From Candidatus Saccharimonadota bacterium (lineage in GTDB: Bacteria > Patescibacteriota > Saccharimonadia > Saccharimonadales > Saccharimonadaceae): a DNA stretch of 64,000 nt. The notes under the pieces are model-generated. The model worked only from the letters and a program-made list of their open reading frames with translations. It did not search any database and had not been told where the DNA came from. The stretch's first letter is position 1. Every line of letters begins with the position of its first letter. The translations under genes were made by a program, and so were the position numbers. Of the stretch, positions 1 through 18,755 are shown piece by piece. The stretch spans positions 45,453 to 109,452 of the forward strand of contig JAFRBH010000011.1 of assembly GCA_017404955.1 (NCBI GenBank), written 5' to 3'.

Positions 1-11
1 TTAGCCCTGCC

Positions 12-896: not shown

Positions 897-915
897 AGAC
901 ATTTTTCTCTATCTA

Positions 916-924: not shown

Positions 925-950
925 TATAGAAAATAAACTGCGAGAATTAA

Positions 951-1400
951 ATGAACAAAGCTCTTAAAACTTCAATTCAAATAATTACTGGCCTTGGTGC
1001 CACACTCGCCTTGAGTGCTGGTAAGGCCATGGCTCTCTCCGTCCAAGAAGGTGCGGAGGCTGCACGTGCTGAAGGTATGCCTACTATGCTCATTGGGCCA
1101 TCTGGTGTGTTCACCCAGATCACCAATACCGTGCTTTATATTGTTGGTATCATTTCTGTTATTATGTTAATTTACGGCGGCCTACGCTATGTCATTTCTG
1201 GTGGTGACAGCAAAAAAGTTACGGACGCCAAAAATACTATTCTTTATGCCATCATTGGTCTTATTGTTTCTATTCTCGCCTTCGCCATTGTTAACTTCGT
1301 CATCAATGCTATTACCGGCGATAACAACAGCGCTGCTCACGTGGAAGGCATCGTCGAACAGCATCAAGAGGAAAACGACGGTCAAAACCAAAACAGCTAA
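951..1400 (+). CDS. T4SS pilin-like small membrane protein, paralog P1 (TrbC/VirB2-type topology)
   Basis: 149 aa with a signal peptide (..AGKAMA), a variable region, then a conserved two-helix hairpin 'IYGGLRYVISGGDSKKVTDAKNTILYAIIGLIVSILAFAIVNFV' shared with the ORFs at 2718-4828. Acidic/Gln-rich C-terminal tail. Confidence 0.8.
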   Translation: MNKALKTSIQIITGLGATLALSAGKAMALSVQEGAEAARAEGMPTMLIGPSGVFTQITNTVLYIVGIISVIMLIYGGLRYVISGGDSKKVTDAKNTILYAIIGLIVSILAFAIVNFVINAITGDNNSAAHVEGIVEQHQEENDGQNQNS

Positions 1401-2072
1401 TTACTTCTTAGCAGTTAAAATCACAGCCGCGGCTAAATACTTAGCCCCGGCTTTTTTCATTAAATCAATAGCTGACTCCATTGAAGCACCAGTAGTCCAA
1501 ACGTCATCAATCAATAAATAGGTTCTATTAGCGTCAATTGCTCCAGATTTAACCAAATAGGCTTCTTTAGCTTGTTTTTTTCTAGTTTTTGCATTAGCTC
1601 CCACCTGTACGGTGTTTTTATTACGATAAAGAACCTGGCAAAAAGAAAACGCCTCTCTCCTCTTCGCCAACGCTTTAGCTAGTCTTAGAGTATGATCAAA
1701 CCCTCGCTCCCTAATATGTTTCGGTGCTGTCGGCAGGGGGACAATTACCGCTTCACCAAAATCTTTTGGCAAAGCTATATCCAACATTTCCGCTAAAATT
1801 TTATCAAGTCCTCTAATCGACTGATATTTGTAATCTTCCGTCAGCTCTTTCATTAACCCGTCCCTGTAAAAAGCTGTGTAGACCGGAACTTCACATTTGC
1901 ATTTTTCTATGTTTTGCTTACACCTAGAACATATTTTTACCATTCGTGATATGTTGTTTTTTTTACAACATTCACACAAAACTCTTCCCAAGTGCCCACA
2001 ACCCCTGCAAGAGTAAGGAGCAATTAGGTCTAAAATGTTAGAAAATGTTGTAATTTTTACATCAAAACCCAT
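1401..2072 (-). CDS. comFC: ComF family protein (ComFC-type phosphoribosyltransferase-fold competence protein)
   Basis: 223 aa with an N-terminal Cys-rich zinc-finger-like segment (CRGCG..CECC..CSRC) and the C-terminal PRTase motif 'LLIDDVWTTGASM'. Its stop codon directly abuts the stop of P1, with no intergenic space. Confidence 0.8.
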   Translation of the reverse strand: MGFDVKITTFSNILDLIAPYSCRGCGHLGRVLCECCKKNNISRMVKICSRCKQNIEKCKCEVPVYTAFYRDGLMKELTEDYKYQSIRGLDKILAEMLDIALPKDFGEAVIVPLPTAPKHIRERGFDHTLRLAKALAKRREAFSFCQVLYRNKNTVQVGANAKTRKKQAKEAYLVKSGAIDANRTYLLIDDVWTTGASMESAIDLMKKAGAKYLAAAVILTAKK

Positions 2073-2079
2073 ATTTTAC

Positions 2080-2108
2080 TTGATTTTAGCAAAAAAGTGC
2101 TTTATAAT
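2080..2108 (+). promoter_or_regulatory. Sigma70-type promoter of hsp20 (TTGATT-17-TATAAT)
   Basis: TTGATT at 2080-2085, a 17-nt spacer, TATAAT at 2103-2108, followed by a leader carrying GGAGG at 2131-2135. On the opposite strand TGcTAAAAT (2091-2083) lies 10 nt upstream of the comFC ATG, so the two promoters are overlapping and divergent. Confidence 0.55.
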
Positions 2109-2139
2109 AAAGCATAACAATAACAATTGTGGAGGTACA

Positions 2140-2622
2140 ATGGCCAAAAGTAATGATGACATGCTGATGGAAGACGAACTCGCTGCCGCTTTTTTGGATG
2201 ACAGCAACGCCGAAGCTCCTGTCGCAGAAGAACCTGTAGACGCAGAAGCAGCACCAGCAGACGACGACGGGTGGGATAACGCCGACGAATTTCCAGGACA
2301 GCTCGCTGTAGATGTCTACGAAACCGCCGACAAATTAGTAGTAAAAGCCCGCACTGCTGGCATTTCCAAGTCTGACTTGGACGTTAGCATTTCGGATAAC
2401 ATTCTAACCATCTCTGGTATCTTAAGCGGTGGTGAAGATGAGCACACTACTCGTTGGCACATTCAAGAGTGCTATTGGGGCGAATTCTCTCGTACCATCG
2501 CTCTTCCTGTTCAAGTTAAGGAAGACGAAAACAGTGTTAAAGCTGAACTAAAAGATGGTGTTCTTACTATTACCTTTGAGAAGGAAAAAGTAGAAGCTCC
2601 AAAGAAGATTCAGATTCAATAA
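2140..2622 (+). CDS. Hsp20/alpha-crystallin family small heat-shock protein
   Basis: Alpha-crystallin domain pattern ('PGQLAVDVYETADKLVVKARTAGISKSDLDVSISDNILTISG ... FSRTIALP..V....VKAELKDGVLTITFEK'). I chose the ATG at 2140, which is preceded by GGAGG, over the ORF-track start at 2035. Confidence 0.85.
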   Translation: MAKSNDDMLMEDELAAAFLDDSNAEAPVAEEPVDAEAAPADDDGWDNADEFPGQLAVDVYETADKLVVKARTAGISKSDLDVSISDNILTISGILSGGEDEHTTRWHIQECYWGEFSRTIALPVQVKEDENSVKAELKDGVLTITFEKEKVEAPKKIQIQ

Positions 2623-2642
2623 TCTGATTTCACCTAGAAATA

Positions 2643-2668
2643 AACCCCTAAGCGATTAGGGGTTTTCT
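2643..2668. terminator. Rho-independent terminator between convergent hsp20 and pilin P2
   Basis: Perfect 9-bp stem AACCCCTAA/TTAGGGGTT (2643-2651 and 2656-2664) with a 4-nt loop and a following T-run. Confidence 0.7.
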
Positions 2669-2717
2669 GATGCTATAATGTCACAATGAACTTCTTAGAG
2701 CAAAAGCTTATTATTTA

Positions 2718-3131
2718 TTACTCTCCGCCACCAAACACTTCAGTCAGCACAAAGTTGACAATTGCAAATGCAAGAAGTGCAATTACCAAGCCAATCACAC
2801 CATACAGTATAGTATTCTTTGCTTTAGCCGCTTTAGCAGGATCACCTTGAGAAGTAATATAGTTAACTCCACCAAGGATAATTACCAACACGGTTACAAT
2901 ACCAAGTACCGCCAAAATTACATTAATAATTACCTGAATAGTATCCATCAGGCCTTTGCCTTCTTCATCCGGCGCCACATTACATTCAGCCAAAGTATTA
3001 GCAGAAATACCTTTTTCAGCACGGATAGAGCCCGCAGGACAATCCACTGCCATTGCCGGCTGAGCTACAAAAAGGGAAAAGACGCCTGCCACTGCTACTG
3101 CCGCACTCGCTACCAAACTTTTTATTTTCAT
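2718..3131 (-). CDS. T4SS pilin-like small membrane protein, paralog P2
   Basis: 137 aa with signal peptide '..AQPAMA', a variable segment containing two Cys, and the conserved hairpin 'GGVNYITSQGDPAKAAKAKNTILYGVIGLVIALLAFAIVNFVL'. It has its own SD (AAGGAG) and a TGaTATAGT box upstream. Confidence 0.85.
   Translation of the reverse strand: MKIKSLVASAAVAVAGVFSLFVAQPAMAVDCPAGSIRAEKGISANTLAECNVAPDEEGKGLMDTIQVIINVILAVLGIVTVLVIILGGVNYITSQGDPAKAAKAKNTILYGVIGLVIALLAFAIVNFVLTEVFGGGE
2752..2786. repeat. 35-nt tract identical to 3251-3285 (pilin P2 and P3)
   Basis: aagttgacaattgcaaatgcaagaagtgcaattac occurs identically in both paralogs and encodes the 'ALLAFAIVNF' helix. The flanking bases differ. 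Confidence 0.9.
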
Positions 3132-3183
3132 TTATCATGCTCCTTAAAATTACTTACCTATACTATATCACATTTCTTATCAC

Positions 3184-3213
3184 AAAAAAAGCTCCCTAAG
3201 AAAGGGAGCTTTT
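3184..3213 (-). terminator. Rho-independent terminator downstream of pilin P3
   Basis: 10-bp stem AAAGCTCCCT/AGGGAGCTTT (3188-3197 and 3203-3212) with a 5-nt loop. The A7 run at 3184-3190 is a U-run on the minus strand. Confidence 0.75.
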
Positions 3214-3222
3214 GAAATTCTA

Positions 3223-3612
3223 TTAAGCATTGAATACGTTAGTAAGAATGAAGTTGACAATTGCAAATGCAAGAAGTGCAATTACAAGACCGACGACACC
3301 GTAGAGAATGGTATTCTTAGCCTTGGTAACCTTAGCGGCATCACCAGAAGAAGTAGTGTATTGAACACCACCCATGATAATCATGACAACAGCTACGAAG
3401 CCGATCACACCAAGAGCTACGTTAATGATAAGGTTGAGAATAGACATTAAATCGCGGCTATCACCAGTAGCTGCCTGTTGTGCGGCGGTACCAGTATATT
3501 TCTGTGCTGGGGTCTCTGCACTCACGGCAGGAGCAATCAAAGCAGAAGCAGTAAGAGTCGCTGTAGCTGCTAGACCCATTGTTACCATTTTGATTTTGTC
3601 TGTAATCTTCAT
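3223..3612 (-). CDS. T4SS pilin-like small membrane protein, paralog P3
   Basis: 129 aa with signal peptide '..APAVSA', a Cys-free variable segment and the hairpin 'GGVQYTTSSGDAAKVTKAKNTILYGVVGLVIALLAFAIVNFIL'. It has its own TGgTATAAT box (3652-3644, minus strand) and an SD. Confidence 0.85.
   Translation of the reverse strand: MKITDKIKMVTMGLAATATLTASALIAPAVSAETPAQKYTGTAAQQAATGDSRDLMSILNLIINVALGVIGFVAVVMIIMGGVQYTTSSGDAAKVTKAKNTILYGVVGLVIALLAFAIVNFILTNVFNA
3251..3285. repeat. 35-nt tract identical to 2752-2786
   Basis: See 2752-2786; the match was read directly from the sequence. Confidence 0.9.
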
Positions 3613-3685
3613 AGAATTTTTTCCTTTAGATTATTTTAATATAATTATACCACAAACTTATTTGTGAGCAAGATTTTTCTTTAAT

Positions 3686-4084
3686 TTACGTGGATGATCC
3701 AAAAATACCACCTAATACGAAGTTCACTATTGCAAATGCCAATATCGCTATAATTAAGCCCACCAGGGAATAAATCAACATATTTCGGGCTTGTTCTATC
3801 TGTCCAGGTTCCCCACTAGAGGTAGCGTATCTTTGGCCAGCTACGACAATCATAACTACTGCTACAATCCCTACTATCGTTATTGCACCATTTATTAACC
3901 CTTGAACTATATTCGGTGCCTGTCCGCTTTCACTACAACCAAGAGCCGCTTTTTGGGCTTCGTCCAAATCCGACGCACAAGCCTCTTTCGTGACCGCATT
4001 TTCTGCCATCACCGGTGTTATTGCCAAAAATCCTGCAAAAGCTGCTATTACTATTGCTAAAATTGCTACGCCTAATTTTCTCAT
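3686..4084 (-). CDS. T4SS pilin-like small membrane protein, paralog P4
   Basis: 132 aa with signal peptide '..TPVMA', a variable segment with two Cys, and the hairpin 'AGQRYATSSGEPGQIEQARNMLIYSLVGLIIAILAFAIVNFVL'. Its start overlaps the P5 stop (ATGA). Confidence 0.8.
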   Translation of the reverse strand: MRKLGVAILAIVIAAFAGFLAITPVMAENAVTKEACASDLDEAQKAALGCSESGQAPNIVQGLINGAITIVGIVAVVMIVVAGQRYATSSGEPGQIEQARNMLIYSLVGLIIAILAFAIVNFVLGGIFGSST

Positions 4085-4383
4085 TCTGCTCCTCCTGTCG
4101 TGGCCGCATCCCCAGCCAAATTAAATATGAAGTTCACAATCGCAAATGCTAATGCCACTATCACCAAACCAACAAGTGCATAAGCTACAATCTGTTTTGC
4201 TTGCTTAATCTTATCTGGTTGCCCTTGTGCAGCCAAAAACTTAATTGCGCCATAAATAATTACACCTACGGCAATCAATCCCGCCGCTGTTAATACCCAG
4301 TTCACAATATTACTAAGCCCTACTGCCGATGTGTCAGCCTTTGGCAAATTATCTAATGCTGTCAAATTACCGTCCATTTTCAT
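4081..4383 (-). CDS. T4SS pilin-like small membrane protein, paralog P5, with no recognisable signal peptide
   Basis: 100 aa with the hairpin 'YGAIKFLAAQGQPDKIKQAKQIVAYALVGLVIVALAFAIVNFIF'. The N-terminus 'MKMDGNLTALDNLPKADTS' is hydrophilic. The start lies 1 nt after the P6 stop. Confidence 0.75.
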   Translation of the reverse strand: MKMDGNLTALDNLPKADTSAVGLSNIVNWVLTAAGLIAVGVIIYGAIKFLAAQGQPDKIKQAKQIVAYALVGLVIVALAFAIVNFIFNLAGDAATTGGAE

Positions 4384-4384
4384 C

Positions 4385-4828
4385 CTAGCTTGCTCCCAAA
4401 ATTGTCATTATTGTATTCATAATTACGCTTGCGAATATCGAAATTAAAAGTCCAACTGTCGCAGCAATCAAAGTTTTCTTACCACGTTCAGCTCTATCTG
4501 GCAAACCTCTAGAAAACATATAAAGATAGCCGCCCCACGCCACCATTATGACTGCAATATAGCCGACCAAAACAGAGAGATCAATCAGAATATTGAGTAC
4601 AATTTTCCAAACGAAAGTCGGTAACTCATCTTGTGTTGGGGTTTTTATCTCACATTTACCATTAATATTGGTGGTTAAGCCCTCGTACCACGGCCTAAGC
4701 CCAAAAAATGCTGTCGAGCCACCACAACCACCACTGTCCCCATCATCGGCATAGACTGCGCCAGTTGTTGCCACCACCCCAGTTAGCATTGTCATTACCA
4801 ACATCAAACTTAAAATAATCTTTTTCAT
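4385..4828 (-). CDS. Divergent T4SS pilin-like membrane protein, paralog P6
   Basis: 147 aa with a signal peptide, a Gly/Cys-containing exposed segment (two Cys), and a two-helix hairpin 'WGGYLYMFSRGLPDRAERGKKTLIAATVGLLISIFASVIMN'. Topology matches the other paralogs but sequence is more distant. First gene of the P6-P5-P4 operon. Confidence 0.65.
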   Translation of the reverse strand: MKKIILSLMLVMTMLTGVVATTGAVYADDGDSGGCGGSTAFFGLRPWYEGLTTNINGKCEIKTPTQDELPTFVWKIVLNILIDLSVLVGYIAVIMVAWGGYLYMFSRGLPDRAERGKKTLIAATVGLLISIFASVIMNTIMTILGAS

Positions 4829-4834
4829 ACTTTT

Positions 4835-4843
4835 ATGATATCA
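4835..4843 (-). promoter_or_regulatory. Extended -10 box (TGaTATCAT) 6 nt upstream of the P6 ATG
   Basis: The minus strand reads TGTGATATCAT-AAAAGT-ATG. There is no SD, so the mRNA is predicted to be leaderless. Confidence 0.45.
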
Positions 4844-4931
4844 CACTTTTGGGGAAGACACTAGATTTTGCAGCCTAAAAACTAAACATAAACACAATCT
4901 AGACAAAAAAGCAAAAATATCTATTTTGCTC

Positions 4932-4960
4932 TTGACTATTTCGCTTATGTGTGCTATAAT
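4932..4960 (+). promoter_or_regulatory. Near-consensus sigma70 promoter of the T4SS structural operon
   Basis: TTGACT (4932-4937), a 17-nt spacer, and TGcTATAAT with the hexamer at 4955-4960. Confidence 0.7.
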
Positions 4961-4969
4961 TAACAGAGA

Positions 4970-4997
4970 TACCTGAAAAATCTCAGGTGTTTTAATT
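4970..4997 (+). promoter_or_regulatory. Small hairpin plus U-tract in the 5' leader of the VirB6-like gene
   Basis: Stem TACCTGA (4970-4976) pairs with TCAGGTG (4983-4989); that is 6 Watson-Crick pairs plus one G-U pair. The loop is 6 nt and is followed by TTTTAATT. Confidence 0.3.
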
Positions 4998-5008
4998 GGG
5001 CAAACAAA

Positions 5009-8000
5009 ATGAAATTATTCAAATCGCTTAAAGAACGTTTGAAGTTACCCCATTTTGATAGGGCAAAAATGCCATTTATTGGGGTAATTTTGGTCGCTTT
5101 CTTAGCGATTTTTGCTATTAACACTACCCCTGTTATGACCACCAACGTCTATGCTGAACCCGCTGAAGCCGTATCTGCAGCTGATGAAACTTGTTACACC
5201 CAAGTTGGTGCTCTTGGTTGGTTTATCTGTCCAGGGACCGGTGTTCTTGCTAAGGCTATTGATGCAGTTTATGGCATTATCAAAGAACTTCTTACTGTTC
5301 AACCTCTGTTTAATAACGATACTTCACCAATATTCCAAGTCTGGCAAATTATGCGGGATATTACGAATATTGTGTTTGTTATCATGTTGCTGATTATCAT
5401 TTATTCTCAGGTCACAGGGATAGGAATCGCCAACTACGGCATTAAAAAAGCCCTGCCAAAGTTGATTATTTCCGCCGTGTTAGTGAACTTATCTTTCTTA
5501 ATCTGTGCTCTGGCAGTCGATAGTAGCAACGTCATTGGTGCTAGCTTGCGTGAAGTTTTTGAAGGCATAGAAGTAAATGCTATCAACAGCGGTGGCCTTG
5601 GTACTGCCGCTCAAGTTACTTGGACCGATCTCGCTTCAGCACTTGTTAGTGGTGGTACCGTAGCCGGTGTTGCTATTGGGGTTGCCGGTGGTCTTGGCGC
5701 CTTCCTTTGGCCAGTACTTGCCGCTATGATTTGTGGCGTTCTTTCCGTGCTAGTTGGTCTTATTACTATTGGACTCCGTCAAGCACTCGTCGCTATGCTG
5801 GTGATGATTGCTCCACTAGCCTTCGTTGCCTATCTCTTGCCAAACACTGAGCAATACTTCAAAAAATGGAAAGATACCCTTATCGCTATGCTTATCTTTT
5901 ATCCAATGTTTAGTCTACTCTTTGGGGCATCACAACTCGCTGGCTGGGCAATCATTGCCTCTTCTGGAAACGCCGGTAATCTTGGCCCATTCTTCATTGT
6001 TCTCGGTATGGCAGTACAAGTATTTCCACTATTCTTGTCGGTTTCTCTTCTAAAGATGAGTAACACCATCCTTGGCACTGTCAGCAGCAAACTTGATAAT
6101 CTGTTCAACAAACCAAAAGAAGGAATTCGCGCTTTTGCCGATCAAAATCGTCAACTTGCTATGAATAGACACGTCAATAATTCCGCTCTCCCTAGTGCAC
6201 ATCTACGCAGATTTCTAGATGGTCAGAAACGCAAGCTAGACATTGGTGCCGAAAACGCTGAAAAAATCAGACGCGGTAACGCTGAAATCTGGGCTCAGAG
6301 AAGAATTGCTAATATGATGAAGTACGACCCGGCTGATTCCGAAAAATACACTAAGGGCGAAAAACAAGCAGACGGTAAGGTTAAGCAATACTACCTCAAA
6401 GCCGATGCTTTCACTAGAGATGCTAAAATGGCAGGGAACATCGAAATGGATGTCAAGACCGCTCAAGATGACGCAAAACATCTTATTGCTAATAGCTACG
6501 GCGAATATTATGGTAAAACCCATCAAGATAAAGCTCTCGCAGATCATGGCGCCAAGAGCTTCAAGGAAATGAACCGTGCCACCTTTACTACAGTCAATGA
6601 TGATGAAGCCGACTTTAACTATTTGACTAGTGAATATCTCAAAGCCGCCAATGCTGGCCACGACAGTTATCAATACAAGCACTTTGTTGAATCTGCTGGT
6701 GGTAGTCTTGGTGAGCTTGGTTCTACCAGTGTGCTTGGTCAGCTCATCGCTAAAGCCGCTGCTAATGAAGCTCGCCACCGTCACGACTTTGGCATTCTTG
6801 GTGCTAAATTCAATATTGATAAACGCGCTTTCCGCAATATGGTTACCGGTTACTATGTCAATGATGATGGTCTTGCTACTTATGCTCCAGATGCCGATGG
6901 TAATCAAAGTAAAGCCTACTATATCAACGATAAAAATGAGCGTGTCTATGAGCAATATCCAGGTGAATTCTTAAAATACCACCCAGAAGCTCTTCACCCA
7001 TACCAACTTCGCGATGAAAACGGTGCCTACTTTGTGATGAAAGATCTCAATGGCAACTTTGTCACTAGGATTTACAAACATAACACACCTGTTATGAAAG
7101 AAATTTTCCAAAACTTTGATACTGTTATTCAGGACCCAATCGATGGTCTTTACGGTATGTTGGCCGGTATCAAGGAAGGCACCTACACCGAAGTTAAAGA
7201 CGAAAATGGCAATGTTATTGCCCGCCTTCCAGACGTAGGCTTTAGTAATCTCCGCACCACAGTTGGTCGCTCTATTCAAGGCGCTAACTTCAAAGAGAAA
7301 GCTGCTTTTGCTGGACCAATGTATACCACCGCCGTTGCTCGTGGCTATATCAAAAACTTTACAGACAACAACATCCACCGCTTAGATGGCATTATCAAAG
7401 CCGTCAAAGCTGGTAACTTCAACATCCAGGATAAATTTGAGCTCGAACTTCTTGCCGACCTTATGAACCCAGAGAACTTCGTTAACGGGCGTCTTGAGTA
7501 TCTGTTCCCATATGAAGATCTAAAAACCGCCTTCGATGTTAATGGTAAACAGCTACGTGGTACTAAGATTAATGAAGATGGCAGCACTTCTGATGTCGAA
7601 CCAGAAAAAGCTACTTACGAACAATTGTTAAACACCGTCAAGAAGAAATATCTCTTCCCAGCCTCTCAGGCTATCGCCTATATGATGTCTCGCGCCACTA
7701 CGCCAAATGTCGCCGATGCTCAAAAATCTGGTTCTGCCGAAGCTTGGGGACTTCTTGCTAATTCCATCGATAAATGGACCGACCCTAAGCTTGCTAAAGA
7801 TGCCCATCTACCAAACCCATACAAGCGCAGCTCGAATACTGTTGACACAGCTTATGAAATGCAGAAAAAAATTCGTGAAAGTTCTACTCCAACAAAAGCT
7901 AAGAGTGCCTATAGTAATAACAATCCTGCCTCATCAGATGATATCATCAGAAACCACCAAAAAAATATTCCTGAACCAAATCCTATAGACCAATATAATC

Positions 8001-8233: not shown

Positions 8234-8288
8234 CTTCTCTTTATTAACACTTCACACCATAAGCTTTTTGTGCTAATATATATTATAT

Positions 8289-9089: not shown

Positions 9090-9104
9090 AGAGACTAAGG
9101 AGAA

Positions 9105-10145: not shown

Positions 10146-12009
10146 AAAAGATCGTAAGAATAAGAATCAACAGCTTTCTGCTGCTCAAATCGCCGCCCAA
10201 GCTGAAGCAATGGAAGAAGCTGAAATCCAAAAAGCGTTTGAACAGGGCATTACTACTCTTCGTGACCTCATCTCTCCATCTAGCATTGAAATCCATGCTG
10301 ATTATTTCCGTCTCGGTACCAAATATGGTCGTACTCTTTACGTCTATGGCTACCCACGTTCATTGTATACTGGCTGGCTCTCTCCGCTTATCAACATCGA
10401 CGAGGTGCTAGATATTTCCATGTTTATCTACCCAGTAGATACTACTATCGTCATGAAAAATCTTCAAAAGAAAGTAACTCAGCTTGAAGCATCTATCTCT
10501 GTAAACTCTGAAAAAGGCAAGATTCGCGACCCAGAACTTGAGGCTGCTATCGGTGATGCCGAGGAGCTCCGCGATCAACTCCAAGTCGGTGCCGAAAAAT
10601 TCTTCCGCTTTGGCCTTTACGTTACTCTTTGGGCCGACTCTCTTGATGAACTTGGATTCGTCCAGAGAAAAATTGAAACTCTCTTTGGCCAGCAGATGGT
10701 GTTCTCTAAAGTTGCATCAAGTCAACAAGAGCAGGGGATGAACAGCTGTATGCCACAATGTACCGATCAGCTCCTTATCCGCCGCAATATGAATACTGGT
10801 GCCATTTCTACTTCTTTCCCATTCACCTCCGCTGACCTTACCCAAGAAAAAGGTATTCTCTACGGTATCAATATGCACAATAATGGCTTAGTCATATTTG
10901 ATCGCTTCTCTCTAGAAAACGCCAACATGGTAGTCTTCGCTAAGTCTGGTTCTGGCAAATCATTTACTGTTAAACTTGAAGCTTTGCGTTCTATGATGGT
11001 TGGGACCGAAGTTCTTATCATCGACCCAGAAAATGAATACCAACGACTTTGTGATGCGGTAGGCGGTTCTTATATTAGACTCTCTCTCAATTCCGACGTG
11101 CGCATTAACCCATTTGATCTGCCAAAAGTAGTTGATGCTGAAGATGCCAACGATGCACTTCGCGCAAACCTTGTTACTCTACATGGTCTCTTCCGCTTAA
11201 TGTTAAGCTCTGGCACTTCCAATAAAACTTCCTCTGCCAATACTGTTATTGCGCCAGCTCTCACACCAAATGAGGAAGCCGATCTTGATCAAGCCTTAAT
11301 TGATACCTATGCTCGTGCTGGCATTACGTCCGATCCACTCACTCATCAATCAACCCCACCAACTATTGCTAACCTTTATGATACCTTGCTTCACATGGGT
11401 GGTACCGGTCCGAATTTGGCTCAACGTCTCCGCAAGTACACTACTGGTACCTTTGCCGGTATTTTCTCTCAACAATCTAATATTGACATCAACAACCAGA
11501 TGGTTGTGTTTAATATTCGCGATCTTGAGGACGAACTTCGCCCAGTTGCTATGTATATCGTCCTCTCTCACATCTGGAATATTGTTCGTGCTCAACAAAA
11601 ACGTCGCTTGCTCATCGTTGATGAGGCCTGGCAATTAATGGAGTACGAAGATTCTGCAAACTTCTTATTCTCACTTGCTAAACGTGCCCGTAAATATTAC
11701 CTTGGTCTTACGACTATTACCCAGGACGTTGAAGACTTCATGTCCTCCAAGATGGGCCGTGCTATTGTGGCAAACTCTTCCATGCAAATTCTCCTAAAAC
11801 AGTCTAGTTCCGCTGTTGACGTCCTTTCTGATGTCTTTAAACTCACCGAGGAAGAGAAAAAACGTCTTTCCAATTTCCCAGTCGGTCAAGGTCTCTTCTT
11901 TGCTGGTCAAAATCACGTTCATATTCAGGTTATCGCCTCAGAAACCGAGGAAGGACTCATCACTACTAATCCAGTTCAGCAACAAACTCAACAACAGAAC
12001 CAACAATAG
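10138..12009 (+). CDS. virB4: VirB4-family T4SS ATPase
   Basis: 623 aa from the ATG at 10138, with AAGGAG 7 nt upstream. Walker A 'FAKSGSGKSF' and Walker B 'RLLIVDEAWQLM' are present. The N-terminal block 'ISPSSIEIHADYFRLGTKYGRTLYVYGYPRSLYTGWLSPL' is typical of Gram-positive VirB4/TrsE proteins. Confidence 0.85.
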   Translation: MSRKDRKNKNQQLSAAQIAAQAEAMEEAEIQKAFEQGITTLRDLISPSSIEIHADYFRLGTKYGRTLYVYGYPRSLYTGWLSPLINIDEVLDISMFIYPVDTTIVMKNLQKKVTQLEASISVNSEKGKIRDPELEAAIGDAEELRDQLQVGAEKFFRFGLYVTLWADSLDELGFVQRKIETLFGQQMVFSKVASSQQEQGMNSCMPQCTDQLLIRRNMNTGAISTSFPFTSADLTQEKGILYGINMHNNGLVIFDRFSLENANMVVFAKSGSGKSFTVKLEALRSMMVGTEVLIIDPENEYQRLCDAVGGSYIRLSLNSDVRINPFDLPKVVDAEDANDALRANLVTLHGLFRLMLSSGTSNKTSSANTVIAPALTPNEEADLDQALIDTYARAGITSDPLTHQSTPPTIANLYDTLLHMGGTGPNLAQRLRKYTTGTFAGIFSQQSNIDINNQMVVFNIRDLEDELRPVAMYIVLSHIWNIVRAQQKRRLLIVDEAWQLMEYEDSANFLFSLAKRARKYYLGLTTITQDVEDFMSSKMGRAIVANSSMQILLKQSSSAVDVLSDVFKLTEEEKKRLSNFPVGQGLFFAGQNHVHIQVIASETEEGLITTNPVQQQTQQQNQQ

Positions 12010-12065
12010 CCTATCTCCATTCTAGCGCTAGTTTTTTTCACCATAATATGTTATAATTACAGAGT

Positions 12066-14702
12066 ATGGTAGGTGAAAAAACTTATTTCGGAAAAGACGA
12101 TTTAAAGCCTGATTTTTTGAAACCTAAAACTCCTTCCAAAACTCCTGCTGATTTTAGTACAAATAATCTCAAAAACTTAGAAGATTCCGCTACTCAGAAA
12201 TCCACTAGTAACCTTGATGCTAAGAACCTAGAAAATGCACCGCAAACTTCTTTGTATTCTAGTTCTAACCAAGAAGACAAAGACCACTATTCGATCAAGG
12301 TTTCAAAAAAATCTAGTAGTTCTAAATTATCTACTCTCATTAAATTTTCACCAGCCGTCTTGCTTATTATTGTTCTTGCCATTGGCGCCTTTATTATCTT
12401 TGGCGCACAATCATTTCTAGGCCCACATATTGAAGCTCTTTATACTGAAGCCACCGATACTGCCTATACCGGTTATAATCTTCGCGCTCAACATATGGCA
12501 GAAGAGATGCTTAAAGGTAAGGTCGGCATGACTGATTATATGAAACAACGCCTGGAAAAGGAGGGTATCGCAGTTGTATCAAACAGCGAACTGAATTTCA
12601 ATAACAAGTCTATCACTGCTGAAAATTTCAAAACTATGTATAACGGTGACGCACTTTTCCGCGAGGCCTATGATAATGCTATTGGTGGTCGCGGCGCCAA
12701 CTTCCTTGATGCTGCCGCCAATAAGTTTACCCAGAAATTGGGACTCTCTAAAGACGTCTTTCACAATTACAAAACTACTGGAAACAATGACACCGATACT
12801 GCTAACTATAATGAGCTCCTAACCGACTATTTCAAGGATAGCGCCGATGCTACCCTCGACTCAGCAGAGAAGAAAGAACAAAAGGATGAAAAAGGAAACA
12901 CTTTTTGGGAATTCTTCCAGATTGGCAACCCTGTTTCATCCAGCAATGACGAAGATAGCCCTGAAGATAAAGCAAAAAAATATCTTCATGACCTTGGAGA
13001 AAAAGTAGCCGAGGAAACAGCCGGTTGTACTACTCTCAAGATTGGCGATATGGTTTCTACGGCTATCTCTTCCAATCGTTTTTATCAAGCTATCCATGAA
13101 TTTATGACTAAAATGGAGACTATTAGTAAGGCTAAAGCCGGGGACGGCGACGCTTCTGCCGTGAACTCCGTCTTGAACTGGTTCACTACCCCAGCTACTA
13201 CTACTGTTTATGACCCGTATACTGAGGAAGAATATACGATTACCGGTTCACCATTAGAATCCGAGGGTGCCAAAGTTGTGCTTGGTGGAGTAACTGCTGA
13301 CTCTGGAAAAACTCCAAAATATTCTTTGGAAAGAAGTTATAAAGCTACTGACAAGATTGCTTTCTCCATGGGAGTGGGTGATACTTGCGTCGTTCAACGT
13401 GCTGGCGGCGTAGTATTAAGTATCCTCACTTCTGCTGTTCCAGGCTCAAAACTCATCACCTCTACCGTCGGGGTTCTTCTTGGCAACGCCTTTGAATTAG
13501 GTGTCAAAGTCGCCGCCGAAGCCGTGCTAAACCTCCTCGTTCCAACCATTGCTAAAGTAATGTACGAAAACCCTTTCACCAATGCTATCGGAATTGCTGG
13601 CGGAGAAGGTTTTACCATGGGTGCTGCTAACGCAAACATGCTCTTAGGACGTCAGACTTCTGGAGCCTCCACCGCTTCAAAAGGGCAAGTTCTAGCCTAC
13701 AACCAAGAAACTAACCAACTTATTGCCCGTGACGCAGAAGTCGATCGTATACATCACAGCCCGTTTGATGCTAGCTCTAAAAACACCTTTTTAGGCTCCA
13801 TAGTCAGCTCTTTGTTGCCGCTATCAACAATCTCTGCTGGCCTCTCGAACTCTATTTCTACTTTATCTAGTATTACTAATAGTTCACTTGCGTCATTGAA
13901 CTCTACTTATGCCGCTGGCGAAAATTCTTCACTCATGACTAGCTTTGGTAACTGTGATAAGACCGAAGAAATCGGTGCTTCCGGAAATTTCTATTGTAGT
14001 GCTATTTCCACTTTAGATCTCTCCACCGTTGATACTGATACCGACGATTCAGAATATCAGGAAGTAATATCGGAAAGTGTGGAAGTTAGAGAAAATGGAG
14101 AAGAGACTGTTAAAGAAGGCTCCCCGCTCGCCCACTATATCGCCTACCATATGGGTCGCTATTCTGCTCCAGGAATCCGCGATGCCAACATTGCTAAAGC
14201 CTGCAAAGAGGATACTAAAAGCTTACCTCATCTTACTAGTATTTCCGATATGCTAAAAGCCTTTGACTCCGAATATTGCGAGTCTGTTGCCGATGGTTCT
14301 CGCTACGTTAACTCGCCCGACAACCCTTATTGGGAAACGGAAAAATGGCATCAACTTTGGGTACTAACTTGGCGCGTTAAGTGTCACATGGGACTCTGTG
14401 CTGATGACGGTGGCCCAATAGTAGCCTATCAAGACAAATACGAAGCTACACATCCCTTTGACAATTCTACCTCTGGCTATCTTGCACGTATCTCTGGCTT
14501 AGAAAAAGATGAAGCCCAGGCTGTTATTGCAGTAATGAATTATCTGGACAAAGTCAATAATTATGATCCAAGTATTGCATATGATTTTACCAGCGACAAA
14601 TCAGAGAACAAGCTACACTTAGGAGGCAACAAAAGGGAAGAATATATTCTATTGAATAGATCTAACTATATCACTAGAAGAGATGCGGAGGTATTATCAT
14701 GA
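12066..14702 (+). CDS. Large membrane-anchored T4SS-associated protein of unknown function
   Basis: 878 aa. It has a disordered Ser/Lys-rich N-terminus, one TM helix ('AVLLIIVLAIGAFIIFGA'), a large extracytoplasmic portion, and a central Gly/Ala-rich hydrophobic stretch ('AGGVVLSILTSAVPG...IGIAGGEGFTMGAANANMLLG'). TGtTATAAT lies 8 nt before the ATG. The 3' end overlaps the next gene (ATGA). Confidence 0.6.
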   Translation: MVGEKTYFGKDDLKPDFLKPKTPSKTPADFSTNNLKNLEDSATQKSTSNLDAKNLENAPQTSLYSSSNQEDKDHYSIKVSKKSSSSKLSTLIKFSPAVLLIIVLAIGAFIIFGAQSFLGPHIEALYTEATDTAYTGYNLRAQHMAEEMLKGKVGMTDYMKQRLEKEGIAVVSNSELNFNNKSITAENFKTMYNGDALFREAYDNAIGGRGANFLDAAANKFTQKLGLSKDVFHNYKTTGNNDTDTANYNELLTDYFKDSADATLDSAEKKEQKDEKGNTFWEFFQIGNPVSSSNDEDSPEDKAKKYLHDLGEKVAEETAGCTTLKIGDMVSTAISSNRFYQAIHEFMTKMETISKAKAGDGDASAVNSVLNWFTTPATTTVYDPYTEEEYTITGSPLESEGAKVVLGGVTADSGKTPKYSLERSYKATDKIAFSMGVGDTCVVQRAGGVVLSILTSAVPGSKLITSTVGVLLGNAFELGVKVAAEAVLNLLVPTIAKVMYENPFTNAIGIAGGEGFTMGAANANMLLGRQTSGASTASKGQVLAYNQETNQLIARDAEVDRIHHSPFDASSKNTFLGSIVSSLLPLSTISAGLSNSISTLSSITNSSLASLNSTYAAGENSSLMTSFGNCDKTEEIGASGNFYCSAISTLDLSTVDTDTDDSEYQEVISESVEVRENGEETVKEGSPLAHYIAYHMGRYSAPGIRDANIAKACKEDTKSLPHLTSISDMLKAFDSEYCESVADGSRYVNSPDNPYWETEKWHQLWVLTWRVKCHMGLCADDGGPIVAYQDKYEATHPFDNSTSGYLARISGLEKDEAQAVIAVMNYLDKVNNYDPSIAYDFTSDKSENKLHLGGNKREEYILLNRSNYITRRDAEVLS

Positions 14703-15829
14703 AAAAGTTAGCTCTTACCTCCATCATCCTAGCGCTTCTAATCTCTACCCCAACCTCTGCACTTTCTACAAACCTTTTCGATTTTTTCTCTAAAAATGGT
14801 ATCTTTTATTATAATCCCGATGGCATCTCCTTAAATTGTCTACCTGGTACTGGTAGCTATGACGGTATTGCTTCAGCTGGTCTTACTGGTCTTCGTGCAG
14901 CTTTTGTAGATACATACCATAATATTGCTTCTACTCTCGGAGCACAGTATGGTATTCCTTGGGAAGCAGTGATGGCTCAGGGAATCTTAGAATCCGCCTC
15001 TGGCACCAGTCGCTTTGCTAGGGAACGCAATAACTTCTTTGGCATTGGTGCCGTTGACAGCAATCCAGACAATGCACACCACTTTAGTTCCGCCTCAGAA
15101 GGTTGGAAAGGATACTTTGATTTTATTAAAAACAATCCTCGCTATGCTTCCCATGGAGCTTTTAATCACGCTGGAGACCCAATTGGCTACATTGAAGCAG
15201 TTAAAGCAGCTGGTTACGCTACTGATCCAAATTATATTTCCAAATTAGTACCAATTGTTAAAGCCATTCAAAATCGTGCATCGGAAAAAGGTTGGGCCGC
15301 CTCTTCAGAGAATGCCTCCAATTATAGTACAAGTTTTAGTTATGATCTCTGTACTATCGACACTGGTGGAAATGGCGATCTTAATTCTACTGCACTTGCA
15401 CTTTCTTGGGGAGATCGCTCACATAGTCTTTACGATCCGAACAATGCTTATAGAAACGCTCTTGATGCAGTTGGGCTTTCTTCCTACGGTGAAAAGTTTG
15501 TTCAAATTGGGGCTAGTTGTGATGCTTTTGTCGCTACAGTATTACGTTTCTCTGGTGTAGATAGGAACGTCCCGTGCTGCGGAGCAGCTACTATGTTGAA
15601 TTACTTTGCCTCTCACCCAGAAAAATACATTGAGGTTCCTAATACTGGCAGTAGCGCCAACCTTCAGCCAGGAGACATACGCGCGTCCGCCAAGCATGTA
15701 GAAATGTATGTTGTTGATGAGGCCGGTACTGGACGCATCGCCTCCGCTTCTCATGGTGACCGTACGGCCGATCACGCTAGTAACTATTATGTAAATAATT
15801 CTATGCGCATTTTTAGACCGAGGAGCTAG
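14699..15829 (+). CDS. Secreted bifunctional peptidoglycan hydrolase H1 (GH73-type N-acetylglucosaminidase plus NlpC/P60- or CHAP-like cysteine peptidase); VirB1/PrgK-type function
   Basis: 376 aa with a signal peptide. Glucosaminidase block 'GIPWEAVMAQGILESASGTSRFARERNNFFGIGA ... AAGYATDPNYISKL'. The C-terminal domain has a candidate Cys ('GASCDAFVATV') and His ('KHVEMYV'). Confidence 0.75.
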   Translation: MKKLALTSIILALLISTPTSALSTNLFDFFSKNGIFYYNPDGISLNCLPGTGSYDGIASAGLTGLRAAFVDTYHNIASTLGAQYGIPWEAVMAQGILESASGTSRFARERNNFFGIGAVDSNPDNAHHFSSASEGWKGYFDFIKNNPRYASHGAFNHAGDPIGYIEAVKAAGYATDPNYISKLVPIVKAIQNRASEKGWAASSENASNYSTSFSYDLCTIDTGGNGDLNSTALALSWGDRSHSLYDPNNAYRNALDAVGLSSYGEKFVQIGASCDAFVATVLRFSGVDRNVPCCGAATMLNYFASHPEKYIEVPNTGSSANLQPGDIRASAKHVEMYVVDEAGTGRIASASHGDRTADHASNYYVNNSMRIFRPRS

Positions 15830-15831
15830 CT

Positions 15832-16479
15832 ATGGAAAAACTTTCAAGATATATTAAGAATCATCCTATTCCAGTAGTTATTATTGTGTCGCTCATCTTC
15901 TTCGCCTTAGTACTTGTTGTCACCGCTTTGAGTCTTAATCCTACGTCTGAAGTGGAGATCCTCGTTGCTCCAGAATCCGCCACAGTTTCCATTAACGGCA
16001 AAACTTATAAAAATGGCACCTATAAGCTGCCCAGTGGTGATGTTTCAGTCAAAATAGAAAAGGACGATTTCACTCCAAAAGAATACACTTTTAATACGCT
16101 AAAAAACAATAAATTATATGATTATCTCACTCAAAATGGCGACTTATCTTGGTACGATTCACATCCTGAAGATGCTATCATCTTAACCACTATTGGCGAT
16201 TATGAGGCCGACCTTACCGCCAACTCTTTCATAGAAAAGTATCCTATTTCCAAACACCTTCCCGTTATCATCGCCGAGTATGATAATGACGATAACTATA
16301 TCGAATTTCGTATTGATGGCGGAAAATTCGAAAATTGTGATCGTGATTTCTGTCTTAAAATCACTGATTCTACCGGCAATAATCTGGATTATGCTCGTGA
16401 GGAAATCCGCAAACTTGGCTTTGAGCCTAATAACTTTGAAATTATTTATGAATATGACCCAGTTATTCCACTAGAATAA
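15832..16479 (+). CDS. PEGA-domain single-pass membrane protein (module 1)
   Basis: 215 aa with an N-terminal TM helix and then a PEGA-like beta-sandwich motif 'VEILVAPESATVSINGKTYKNGTYKLPSGDVSVKIEKDDFTPKEYTF'. GAGGAG SD lies 6 nt upstream. Confidence 0.65.
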   Translation: MEKLSRYIKNHPIPVVIIVSLIFFALVLVVTALSLNPTSEVEILVAPESATVSINGKTYKNGTYKLPSGDVSVKIEKDDFTPKEYTFNTLKNNKLYDYLTQNGDLSWYDSHPEDAIILTTIGDYEADLTANSFIEKYPISKHLPVIIAEYDNDDNYIEFRIDGGKFENCDRDFCLKITDSTGNNLDYAREEIRKLGFEPNNFEIIYEYDPVIPLE

Positions 16480-16509
16480 ACACAAGTTTTTTGCTATAAT
16501 ATACACTAT

Positions 16510-17829
16510 ATGGCAGGAAGGTCGAGAGAAGGAAATCGTATATTTCACTCTTTCTTATGTTTTCTTTTTTTAACCTTAATTCTATCCTCATCTATCACCT
16601 TCAATGTTAGCGCGCTTTCCGATCTCCAAAAGGTGATTTTTAAAGAAAATAATATCATGTTTTGGAATCCGGACGAAAATCTTGTATATTGTCAACCAGT
16701 CTACGATGCAGACAGGTCCGATTCCACTGAAGATCCAGCAAACATTAGCAGTTCTGGCTATGGACGCCTTAAATGGGCGGTCGAACAATATGGTGAATAT
16801 GCTATGGAGATGCAACGCGAGTACGGAGTTCCTTGGGAAGTTGTTTTCGCACAAATGCAGCATGAATCCAGCGTCGGTACCGCAGGCATTGCTACAAGCG
16901 GTGCAACCAACAACTGGCTTGGTATAACTAAATCTGGCGATGCCGGCAGCTGGACGTCCAGCAGTGGTCGCCAATGGGCAGTATTCAGCAGTGTCGAATC
17001 ATCGATTAAGGCTTGGGCTGGCTCACGGGTGCTAAGAAATGGATATTATGACAAATCTTTCTCATACCTTTCCCCGAGTAGCTACAATCTAAAAGGCTTC
17101 CTCACAGAAATGATTCATCATTACGCTCCAGCAAGTGATGGAAACGATGAGTCTCATTACGTATCTACCGTGTTGGGGTTAATCAATGGACCTATTGCGG
17201 ATGTCAGGAAAAAGTTGGGCTGGCAATCATCAGAAGAATTAGCGAAATCAGAAAATATTCAACCAGGAGGCAAACACCCAATTGGAGATCGTATACCGAC
17301 AGATCAATCCATAAATACCGTAGATTCTAATAATAAATCTGTCATTTGTAACCGTTACGGCGAAGAGATAACTAATTACAATGGCAGCTCAATTGCAGAG
17401 GTCGGTAAAAAGCTAGCTTGGGGAGATGAGCAACATTATAATGCTGTTAACCCTGCTTTCGCAGAGGCTGCAAGAGCATTAGGTATCAATCCAACACTCG
17501 GTTGGTCTCAAGACTGTGGGCATTTTGCTTCCGTTGTTATTCGTTCAACAGGAATAGACCCATCCTTCCCAGAAACTGGATCTGGTAGAATGAAATCATA
17601 CCTGGAGAGTTCTTCAAGCTGGACACAAATAGAAAATCTAGGAAATACAAGCAACCTTGAATCTGGTGATGTCTTCGTAGTTAACGGACATATCATGATC
17701 TATACTGGTGGAACTGGAAAATATAATGCCGTATCAGCATCGCAAGGTGATTATACTGGAAAGATATCATCAATTTACTTTACACATAAAAGCGGACAAA
17801 AGTTTTCGATTTTCCGCCATAAAGGATAG
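16510..17829 (+). CDS. Secreted bifunctional peptidoglycan hydrolase H2, a paralog of 14699-15829
   Basis: 439 aa with an N-terminal hydrophobic signal or anchor. GH73-like block 'GVPWEVVFAQMQHESSVGTAGIATSGATNNWLGI'. C-terminal Cys/His peptidase-like domain ('QDCGHFASVVI', 'NGHIMIYTG'). TGcTATAAT lies 9 nt before the ATG. Confidence 0.7.
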   Translation: MAGRSREGNRIFHSFLCFLFLTLILSSSITFNVSALSDLQKVIFKENNIMFWNPDENLVYCQPVYDADRSDSTEDPANISSSGYGRLKWAVEQYGEYAMEMQREYGVPWEVVFAQMQHESSVGTAGIATSGATNNWLGITKSGDAGSWTSSSGRQWAVFSSVESSIKAWAGSRVLRNGYYDKSFSYLSPSSYNLKGFLTEMIHHYAPASDGNDESHYVSTVLGLINGPIADVRKKLGWQSSEELAKSENIQPGGKHPIGDRIPTDQSINTVDSNNKSVICNRYGEEITNYNGSSIAEVGKKLAWGDEQHYNAVNPAFAEAARALGINPTLGWSQDCGHFASVVIRSTGIDPSFPETGSGRMKSYLESSSSWTQIENLGNTSNLESGDVFVVNGHIMIYTGGTGKYNAVSASQGDYTGKISSIYFTHKSGQKFSIFRHKG

Positions 17830-17834
17830 CTATT

Positions 17835-18755
17835 ATGAAAGAATTTTTAAGTAAAAATATTAGACCTATCTTAATAATTGTCGTGATTACCTTCATTGGG
17901 GCTATTGCGATAATATTAACTCACTCTTTAATAAATTCCTCCACCATCAATGTTCTCGTTGCCCCGCAGTCCTCTACTATCTACATTGACAACAATCTGG
18001 TGAATAATGGTGAGGTTCGCGTAACTCCAGGTAGACACATTGTAAAAGCTGAGAAAGCGGGTTTTGAAGCTCAATCTATGGAGATAGATGCAAAGTCAGG
18101 CGAGACATCTAACGCTTTCATTATACTAAATTCAAACTCTGACAGTACCGCCAATTGGTATAATGAGAATCCAAAGGATGCCTTATTACGCGAGAAAATC
18201 GCTGGAAGGGAATATAATATCACTAGTCAAGAATATGAAAAGGATTTTCCTATTATTACCCAACTACCATACGAAACAATGAACTACACAATTAATTACG
18301 GCGAATGTGAGTATTCAAAGTTTTGTATATATATCGATGCACCAGCAGGCGCAAGAGATGTAGCGTTAAAAGTCATCTCGCAGTTTGATAGTAATCTTGG
18401 AAGATATTACTACATATTCAATGATTATATCAATCCGTTTTCAGAATACATCAAACCAAACAATATTGTTGAGGAGTCCATTGCATCTAAAGATATTGAT
18501 CGAGTAACCGAAGTTATCAGCGATATTTTCAAGAATCGTAAATATAAAGTCCAAAATGCACAAATATTAGATAATTATATTATCGCAACGGTTTCTCACA
18601 TTGTTGACGATTATGGTGATATAGATACCTATAGATTAGTGTTTCAGAAGAGTAACGATAGTTTCGTCTTACTTAACACTCCTGAGTTAGTTTTAACCTA
18701 TGCAAAATATCCTAACTTACCTCAAAAAATTATCGATGCCATCAATAATCTCTAA
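17835..18755 (+). CDS. PEGA-domain single-pass membrane protein (module 2)
   Basis: 306 aa with an N-terminal TM helix and then 'INVLVAPQSSTIYIDNNLVNNGEVRVTPGRHIVKAEKAGFEAQSMEI'. The architecture matches 15832-16479, with a longer C-terminal domain. Confidence 0.65.
   Translation: MKEFLSKNIRPILIIVVITFIGAIAIILTHSLINSSTINVLVAPQSSTIYIDNNLVNNGEVRVTPGRHIVKAEKAGFEAQSMEIDAKSGETSNAFIILNSNSDSTANWYNENPKDALLREKIAGREYNITSQEYEKDFPIITQLPYETMNYTINYGECEYSKFCIYIDAPAGARDVALKVISQFDSNLGRYYYIFNDYINPFSEYIKPNNIVEESIASKDIDRVTEVISDIFKNRKYKVQNAQILDNYIIATVSHIVDDYGDIDTYRLVFQKSNDSFVLLNTPELVLTYAKYPNLPQKIIDAINNL

Follow-up and report, generated by a model that had tools for sequence, protein, structure and literature searches.

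The closest described relative of the locus treated here is the 'apparent T4SS (SEML1_0006-0019)' of Candidatus Southlakia epibionticum ML1, a type IV secretion system (T4SS) reported to be essential by transposon sequencing (Tn-seq) by Wang et al. 2023 in Cell (PMC10633639). It was described to resemble Gram-positive conjugative systems, with a series of essential pilins and no recognizable coupling or relaxase proteins (PMC10633639). According to Tables S1/S2 of that work, the genes of ML1 run in the order dnaA, dnaN, recF, a prealbumin-like protein, PEGA, a hydrolase with two lysozyme-like domains and one cysteine-proteinase domain, a 1,113-amino-acid (aa) protein with a C-terminal DD-peptidase fold, VirB4 (K12063), a 293-aa protein, PrgI, a 998-aa 'type IV secretion system protein', a non-essential NTF2-like protein, a 1,088-aa TrbL/VirB6-like protein, six pilins, Hsp20 and ComF. 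Nearly all genes of roughly SEML1_0004-0021, the region that matches the present locus, are essential in co-culture (Tables S1/S2), and the comF orthologue SEML1_0021 is non-essential (PMC10633639). A survey of 2,474 virB4 genes by Quinonero-Coronel et al. 2025 (PMC12102498) revealed a Patescibacteria-wide clade related to MPF_FATA, with TrsD, PrgI, VirB6 and arrays of 2-11 VirB2 genes; relaxases are nearly absent and VirD4 homologues distant, the loci lie near dnaA/dnaN, and comF occurs in some of them. The locus described here occupies positions 951-18755 of a 64,000-nucleotide stretch of DNA (the window) from Candidatus Saccharimonadota bacterium (GCA_017404955.1, contig JAFRBH010000011.1, positions 45,453 to 109,452 of the forward strand). 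It is very probably a chromosomal, vertically inherited T4SS of Saccharibacteria/Patescibacteria that descends from MPF_FATA conjugation machinery, the DNA-processing half of which has been lost. Such a system is not new, since it was described, and found essential in a cultured relative, in the literature of 2023-2025; the novelty implied by an earlier note on this DNA is therefore not supported (PMC10633639, PMC12102498), and what the window newly provides is minor lineage-specific detail only.

The gene inventory is based on a listing of the open reading frames (ORFs) with translations and on Pfam and NCBIfam profile searches. The block comprises six VirB2-type pilins, a VirB6-like protein, PrgI/VirB3, a TrsD-like protein, VirB4, an 878-aa protein and two hydrolase + PEGA pairs, with comF and hsp20 embedded within the pilin array. 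Every part listed in the earlier note was found in its place. The components of the apparatus are the following (TM, transmembrane; E, expectation value):

951-1400, plus strand: VirB2-type pilin 1 (PF18895 T4SS_pilin, 45.9 bits; two TM helices)
2718-3131, minus strand: VirB2-type pilin (PF18895)
3223-3612, minus strand: VirB2-type pilin (PF18895)
3686-4084, minus strand: VirB2-type pilin (PF18895)
4081-4383, minus strand: VirB2-type pilin (PF18895)
4385-4828, minus strand: VirB2-type pilin (PF18895)
5009-8233, plus strand: extended VirB6-like protein (TM layout and fold match to TrwI/VirB6)
8289-9089, plus strand: PrgI/VirB3-like membrane protein (PF12666, 47.2 bits against a cut-off of 27)
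9105-10145, plus strand: TrsD/TraD-like protein of 346 aa (NF041427 TrsD, E 7.8e-7, below the curated cut-off)
10138-12009, plus strand: VirB4 ATPase of the CD1110/MPF_FATA type (NF045971 conju_CD1110, 376.7 bits against a cut-off of 325)
12066-14702, plus strand: 878-aa single-pass (bitopic) membrane protein (TM segment at residues 86-120 and about 760 aa outside the cell, by TM scan)
14699-15829, plus strand: secreted bifunctional cell-wall hydrolase 1 (PF01832 Glucosaminidase (GH73), 93.7 bits; FlgJ matches in the PDB)
15832-16479, plus strand: membrane-anchored PEGA/prealbumin-like beta-sandwich protein 1 (paralogue of 17835-18755, E 2e-17)
16510-17829, plus strand: secreted bifunctional cell-wall hydrolase 2 (PF01832, 42.5 bits)
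17835-18755, plus strand: membrane-anchored PEGA-like protein 2 (PEGA, E 9e-4)

As judged from order, size and domain content, the window matches roughly SEML1_0004-0021 of ML1 gene for gene, as a mirror image. Both loci lie at the same site beside dnaA-dnaN-recF and in the same orientation relative to these genes, both have six pilins, and the order PEGA, lysozyme/cysteine-peptidase hydrolase, large single-pass protein, VirB4, TrsD-like protein, PrgI, VirB6-like protein, pilins, hsp20 and comF is the same. The window differs from ML1 in having one extended VirB6-like gene instead of two, no counterpart of the non-essential NTF2-like (TraM/VirB8-like) gene, a duplicated hydrolase + PEGA module, a large protein of 878 aa instead of 1,113 aa with a C-terminal DD-peptidase domain, and one pilin displaced beyond comF and hsp20. 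With the Patescibacteria clade (PMC12102498) it shares the MPF_FATA-related VirB4, the adjacent TrsD, the PrgI-type VirB3, VirB6, the VirB2 array, the absence of a relaxase, the proximity to dnaA/dnaN and comF; there is no essential difference, and the window is one more member from the Saccharimonadia. The MPF_FATA systems of Gram-positive bacteria (TrsC-TrsD-TrsE-TrsG of pGO1/pIP501, and pCF10) have in common with it a CD1110-family VirB4, PrgI, a polytopic VirB6 analogue and a bifunctional wall hydrolase; TrsD and VirB4 are split in pGO1 as in the window, and the gene order parallels PrgH-PrgI-PrgJ-PrgK-PrgL of pCF10. In contrast to these systems the locus is chromosomal and not mobile, with neither a relaxase nor a type IV coupling protein (T4CP) in the scanned ORFs; it has VirB2-type pilins, which the Gram-positive systems lack, and no recognisable VirB8-like protein or LPXTG adhesin.

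Conserved core and missing transfer genes

The VirB4 protein aligns to positions 158-732 of NF045971, with the first ~157 model positions absent, and matches the solved VirB4 C-terminal domain (PDB 4AG5) with E 7.8e-47. Walker A (KSGSGKS) and Walker B (LLIVDEAW) motifs are both present in the translation, so that the earlier identification of a VirB4 ATPase with these motifs is borne out. The TrsD-like ORF, which was overlooked in the earlier note, lies between prgI and virB4. It matches positions 19-173 of 792 in the VirB4_CagE model (TIGR00929), i.e. the first ~170, as well as TraC_F_IV (E 0.0021), and the orthologue in the related genome GCA_045578525.1 (L082) belongs to PF26593 TraC-like. 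Because the TrsD-like protein matches N-terminal positions of VirB4 and VirB4 itself aligns only from position 158, VirB4 appears to be split as in the pGO1 TrsD/TrsE subclass, and the TrsD-like protein is predicted to be the detached VirB4 N-terminal module behind a Pro/Gln/Ala-rich stretch. Imperfect direct repeats (window 9105-9520) encode this stretch, which makes up ~120 aa of low complexity at the N-terminus. The stop codon of the TrsD-like ORF overlaps the ATG of virB4, which is preceded by an AAGGAG ribosome-binding site, and the two genes are predicted on these features to be translationally coupled. The PrgI/VirB3-like protein has a hydrophobic hairpin at residues 24-69, and its earlier assignment is confirmed by the PF12666 PrgI score.

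The VirB6-like protein consists of an N-terminal hydrophobic segment, ~6-7 further TM segments in residues 111-350, and then ~720 hydrophilic residues (TM scan); an 'extended VirB6' layout of this type is described in PMC12857230. An AlphaFold2 model built from 30 homologues had a predicted local distance difference test (pLDDT) score of 69. The top four Foldseek matches of the model in the PDB are all TrwI/VirB6 of R388 (7o3v_G, 7o3v_F, 8rtd_L and 8rt9_F), with probabilities of 0.99-1.0, weak E of 0.026-0.05 and target-normalised TM-scores of 0.37-0.49. Neither the whole protein nor its N-terminal 400 aa matched any Pfam or NCBIfam family, and hhalign of the family against PrgH of pCF10 was not significant (probability 0.6%). 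PF19590 is listed in the records of two homologues; this match was not reproduced, and a literature search gave no mention of PF19590. The product of 5009-8233 is accepted as VirB6-like at the level of the modelled fold only. The earlier VirB6 claim is thus upheld by fold and topology and finds no support in the Pfam/NCBIfam hidden Markov model (HMM) searches or the PrgH alignment.

No relaxase, VirD4/TcpA coupling protein, VirB11, integrase or transposase was detected with Pfam among the ~55 scanned ORFs of the 64-kb window, in agreement with the earlier note. None of these ORFs has a MOB-family relaxase domain; no oriT search was made. The only match to a TraG-type P-loop or AAA_10 is VirB4 itself. 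As neither a coupling ATPase nor a relaxase was seen in the window, the locus lacks the appearance of a system for conjugation. Bounding or att-like repeats around the block are absent from bases 1-24000, as was claimed for flanking direct repeats, and the sole repeats in this interval are due to pilin paralogy, Pro-rich codon repeats and short DnaA-box-like motifs. The earlier note had held that a relaxase, coupling protein and integrase immediately upstream would make the block an ordinary integrative and conjugative element (ICE); in L082 the upstream genes are a seventh pilin, rpoD, dnaG, a hypothetical gene and MscL, not a relaxase or integrase, and no transfer or integration genes occur in the 5 kb further upstream of the window-equivalent region.

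Inheritance and chromosomal setting

Related loci (L001-L080) were taken from species-level genomes picked by VirB4 similarity, and synteny was determined by tblastn of all window proteins. Among the stretches scanned, 592 Saccharibacteria relatives were confirmed. The VirB4 protein shares 96% identity with its counterpart in a Saccharibacteria metagenome-assembled genome from sheep ileum, and 82-92% with those in 79 more species-level genomes that carry the label Saccharibacteria, Nanosyncoccus or Nanosyncoccaceae; the source genome is that of a Nanosyncoccus-like saccharibacterium of the animal gut. The order pilin1, comF, hsp20, pilins, virB6L, prgI, trsD, virB4 is present in essentially every related locus with enough flank, and virB6L was found in 72, prgI in 78 and trsD in all 80 of the 80 loci. 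Since this core order is conserved in ~80 related species, the locus is considered inherited and not mobile. The absence from close relatives that had been named as a sign of accessory status was not seen, and the earlier reading of a housekeeping, non-conjugative machine agrees with the lack of transfer and integration genes in 64 kb, with the core synteny, and with the same conclusion in print. The region downstream of virB4 is variable among the relatives; recF-dnaN-dnaA lies within 10 kb in ~38 loci, largely those with the 878-aa family.

Sequence identities were compared in the 36 related genomes carrying both virB4 and dnaN. The median identity is 86.8% for VirB4, against 55.2% for DnaA, 58.7% for DnaN and 58.1% for RecF, a contrast that is somewhat inflated because the loci were chosen by VirB4 similarity. 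The far higher conservation of VirB4 than of DnaA points to a strongly constrained cytoplasmic motor. Fast-evolving in the same genomes are the pilins (39-64%), the VirB6-like protein (35%), the 878-aa protein (32%) and the hydrolases and PEGA proteins (26-59%).

The genes and sites that flank or accompany the apparatus are:

1-896, plus strand: left flank, DAGK-type lipid kinase (PF00781 DAGK_cat, E 9e-10)
1401-2072, minus strand: comF, ComF(C)-type phosphoribosyltransferase, a competence protein (TIGR00201, E 2.6e-19)
2137-2622, plus strand: hsp20, small heat-shock protein (PF00011, E 1.1e-19)
4932-4960, plus strand: sigma-70-like promoter match (TTGACT, 17-nucleotide spacer, TG-TATAAT; 11 of 12 positions, a consensus match only)
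18752-22605, minus strand: right flank, recF, dnaN and dnaA (translations)

The block is bracketed by the lipid kinase gene on the left and recF-dnaN-dnaA on the right, both as described before. The lipid kinase frame is open to base 3 and the gene therefore starts upstream of the window; the orthologue in L082 has 321 aa. A divergent promoter region (4829-5008) separates the pilin operon from a 10-gene operon with the VirB6-like, PrgI/VirB3, TrsD-like, VirB4, 878-aa surface protein and two hydrolase + PEGA pairs, and the site at 4932-4960, ahead of virB6L, is the best sigma-70-like match within bases 1-19900. The operon genes are tightly spaced, their reading frames overlapping or nearly abutting, and the stop codons of pega2 and the convergent recF overlap (18752-18755). 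The gene dnaA lies 9 kb from virB4. DnaA-box-like TTTTCCACA boxes are located at 20920, 22482, 22568, 22635 and 22668, so that five of the six exact copies in the window are clustered around dnaA; this cluster supports an origin there, and oriC is probably situated around dnaA, to judge from these motifs. The 10-gene operon (5009-18755) is transcribed towards dnaA and the DnaA-box cluster (20920-22676), i.e. head-on to forks leaving the putative origin. The orientation is the same in ML1 and is unusual for an essential, probably well-expressed gene set.

The remaining ORFs of the window encode, according to Pfam, ABC exporters, YidC, a Jag/KhpB-like protein, LytR, a LexA-like protein, a large glycosyltransferase/rhamnose cluster, a ricin-lectin protein, Wzy and a Mur ligase, and the Rfam scan gave tRNA-Met only. 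The ricin-lectin gene (35230-37350) encodes a 706-aa protein with ~8 ricin-B lectin repeats (PF14200, E 5e-86), a candidate host-glycan adhesin, and sits in a surface polysaccharide cluster of ~27 kb (30.4-57.6 kb) with glycosyltransferases, rmlABCD, Wzy and an ABC-2 exporter. A secreted protein of >328 aa without Pfam match (63010-64000) runs past the right edge of the window.

Several points weigh against the reading of the locus as an inherited, non-conjugative T4SS. The window covers 64 kb of the genome, and a T4CP or relaxase may be encoded elsewhere; in many Patescibacteria VirD4-like genes lie far away from virB4, as is the case in ML1, whose VirD4-like gene was non-essential (PMC12102498). 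No VirB8-like protein was found by HMM searches of the window proteins or by hhalign of the PEGA family against the VirB8-like PrgL, which was negative. The VirB6 call comes from a fold match of weak E obtained with a model of pLDDT 69, with no HMM support and a negative PrgH comparison. Pilus formation, essentiality in the source organism and the direction of transport are inferred.

Pilins, surface protein and wall hydrolases

The extracytoplasmic parts of the T4SS carry export signals or membrane anchors (TM scan). All six pilin ORFs exceed the PF18895 gathering cut-off of 26.6 bits, with scores of 30.5-45.9 (30.5-45.7 for the five on the minus strand, which form the array 2718-4828), and the six pilin-like proteins of the earlier note are thereby verified; several also match TrbC/VirB2 below threshold. 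In the alignment most have a signal peptide and all six have two hydrophobic helices with a charged loop, typical of VirB2. The pilins are diverged, with 27-37% identity to pilin 1, which is split from the main array by comF and hsp20 and has a promoter-like site (896-924) ahead of it. A terminator-like hairpin is located at 3213-3187 in the array. Related loci have 3-7 pilins each. In L082 a seventh and longer T4SS_pilin gene (4069-4773; 234 aa) is present upstream of the lipid kinase, by rpoD and dnaG. The pilin set of the source genome probably extends past the left edge of the window. The comF gene is found at the same position in 52 related loci and its product is probably not a T4SS part; the position of hsp20 matches that of SEML1_0020 in ML1.

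The 878-aa protein occupies the position of SEML1_0007 in ML1. It has no Pfam match, and the sole NCBIfam match is at chance level (E 0.064); its model (pLDDT 65, predicted TM-score 0.68) gave no significant fold match in the PDB or in the BFVD viral structure library. The earlier label 'orphan' does not apply, since the family amounts to ~1,400 clusters: a word-indexed search gave 27, and an exhaustive profile search 1,417 at E <= 1e-3 and 599 at E <= 1e-30. Several near-invariant cysteines are common to the long members. Members are encoded immediately after virB4 in 30 of 71 related loci and somewhere in the 10 kb of retrieved downstream sequence in 35 of 71, and are undetectable in about half of the 71 even by HMM. 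Among close relatives, presence of the family coincides with a locus adjoining recF-dnaN-dnaA. In rare cases a long member has a GDSL-type esterase or a metallophosphoesterase domain. The idea that the family is a general carrier of enzyme domains was rejected, as an extra Pfam domain is found in only 2 of 45 long members.

The two hydrolases are full-length paralogues (26% identity, E 3e-25). In their shared C-terminal domain a Trp, a Cys, a Gly-Asp and a His are invariant; among 34 family members this domain is matched by NlpC/P60 in seven (best E 2.4e-6) and by CHAP in four, and it gave weak NlpC/P60 matches among PDB sequences. The L082 orthologue of hydrolase 2 matches PF18013 and PF13529, and phmmer of hydrolase 2 itself against PDB sequences gave nothing. 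The C-terminal domain is predicted from these residues and family matches to be a cysteine peptidase of the NlpC/P60/CHAP type. With a GH73 domain and a Cys/His domain that matches the NlpC/P60 and CHAP families, the term 'bifunctional hydrolase' is justified, and two such enzymes are present as the earlier note had stated. The PEGA domain was matched by 16 of 32 members of the family to which the two PEGA proteins belong (best E 8.2e-9). As the hydrolases are paralogous to each other and the PEGA proteins likewise, they constitute a tandemly duplicated two-gene module. The duplicates (14699-18755) are old, with 26-27% identity, and a single pair is present in ML1 and many relatives.

Possible functions

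The steps of the following mechanism are taken from the known roles of the component families. A VirB4 hexamer, docked on the membrane via PrgI/VirB3 and the detached N-terminal module, would supply the power to pull VirB2-type pilins out of the membrane and to polymerise them on a platform of VirB6. The two secreted enzymes, with glucosaminidase and cysteine-peptidase domains, would open the cell wall for the structure to cross, and contact with the host bacterium would be made by those extracellular parts that evolve fast, namely the pilins, the C-terminal domain of VirB6, and the 878-aa and PEGA proteins. The most likely product of the locus is a pilus or tube at the interface between epibiont and host, for contact and transfer of material. 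Since no coupling protein is in view, canonical recruitment of cytoplasmic substrates is unlikely, which leaves a contact pilus or tube, two-step export or import as options; material could be moved either outwards, by two-step export of factors that leave through Sec, or inwards, by uptake of macromolecules of the host. Growth on the host probably requires the system, to judge from its orthology with that of S. epibionticum ML1. Effector delivery and ComB-like nucleic-acid uptake are discussed as candidate functions in a 2025 FEMS review (PMC12857230) and a 2024 PNAS perspective (PMC11665869), and the functions proposed in the earlier note (host contact, effector delivery, nutrient or DNA uptake) are likewise found in these papers.

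Two T4SSs without coupling protein or relaxase serve as a comparison, namely ComB of Helicobacter pylori, which takes up DNA, and Ptl of Bordetella, which exports a toxin; both have VirB2, VirB3, VirB4 and VirB6. They differ from the present locus in being diderm systems with a VirB7-VirB10 outer-membrane core and known substrates, and have no close sequence relationship to it.

That the apparatus is a contact-dependent translocator, injecting effector proteins into the host bacterium so as to subvert or feed on it, is a tentative possibility. The ML1 system is essential in co-culture and protein export was suggested by Wang et al. (PMC10633639), T4CP-less protein-secreting T4SSs are known in Bordetella Ptl and Brucella VirB (PMC12102498), and the surface parts evolve fast, as is expected at a host interface. 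However, the window has no coupling protein to recruit cytoplasmic substrates, and neither effector candidates nor recognisable secretion signals were identified in it. The GDSL-type and metallophosphoesterase domains of rare 878-aa family members, and the DD-peptidase domain of the ML1 orthologue, would also fit this function, although such enzyme fusions are sporadic (2 of 45 long members).

A role like that of H. pylori ComB, in which DNA or RNA/nucleotides are taken up and ComF and other competence proteins handle the imported host nucleic acid, is somewhat more doubtful. The window resembles ComB in having VirB2, VirB3, VirB4 and VirB6 and no T4CP, relaxase or VirB11, the idea was raised in PMC11665869, and in a 2026 preprint a Patescibacteria parasite is reported to feed on RNA of its host and to show possible T4SS pili where the two cells meet. 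The comF gene is situated inside the block and keeps this position in 52 related loci, but its orthologue in ML1 is non-essential. VirB4 has weak NCBIfam matches to the archaeal DNA-import ATPases CedB and CedD, but with scores far below the cut-offs. ML1 needs comEC for transformation, a process attributed to type IV pili, and deletion of comEC abolishes competence without an effect on growth, whereas the T4SS is essential (PMC12857230); these genetic results speak against DNA uptake by way of ComEC as the function that makes the T4SS essential.

It is unlikely, though conceivable, that the locus forms a feeding tube, in which the VirB4 motor assembles a pilus of VirB2 to pierce the envelope of the host and take in its macromolecules (RNA/nucleotides), with the 878-aa family as host-range or envelope-breaching module. 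Such a role of the 878-aa family would be in keeping with its fast evolution, its presence-or-absence distribution and the occasional peptidase, GDSL-esterase or phosphoesterase domains. A decayed or cryptic ICE, with relaxase, T4CP and integrase outside the window, is highly improbable and this reading is rejected as largely refuted: VirB4 does belong to the conjugative CD1110 family and the G+C content of the block (40-44%) is slightly above that of recF-dnaA (34%), but the block value is within the range of the remaining window, both flanks are housekeeping genes, no integrase or transposase was found in the window and no bounding att-like repeats in bases 1-24000, VirB4 is much more constrained than DnaA, and position and order are kept across ~80 species.

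For the inherited, non-conjugative T4SS the interest of the window is modest, because it contributes only lineage-specific variation. For the Patescibacteria, a very large branch of bacteria of which most are uncultured, the T4SS is one of a small number of machines with a demonstrated essential role in epibiotic life. In the gut-associated Nanosyncoccus-like lineage the content and order of the core are fixed and the ATPase is exceptionally constrained, with variable extracellular parts that include the 878-aa protein and the hydrolase + PEGA modules. If the feeding-tube reading were true, the 878-aa family would be a new class of T4SS accessory protein. The pattern of a fixed core and a variable surface could guide the choice of targets in studies of host range.

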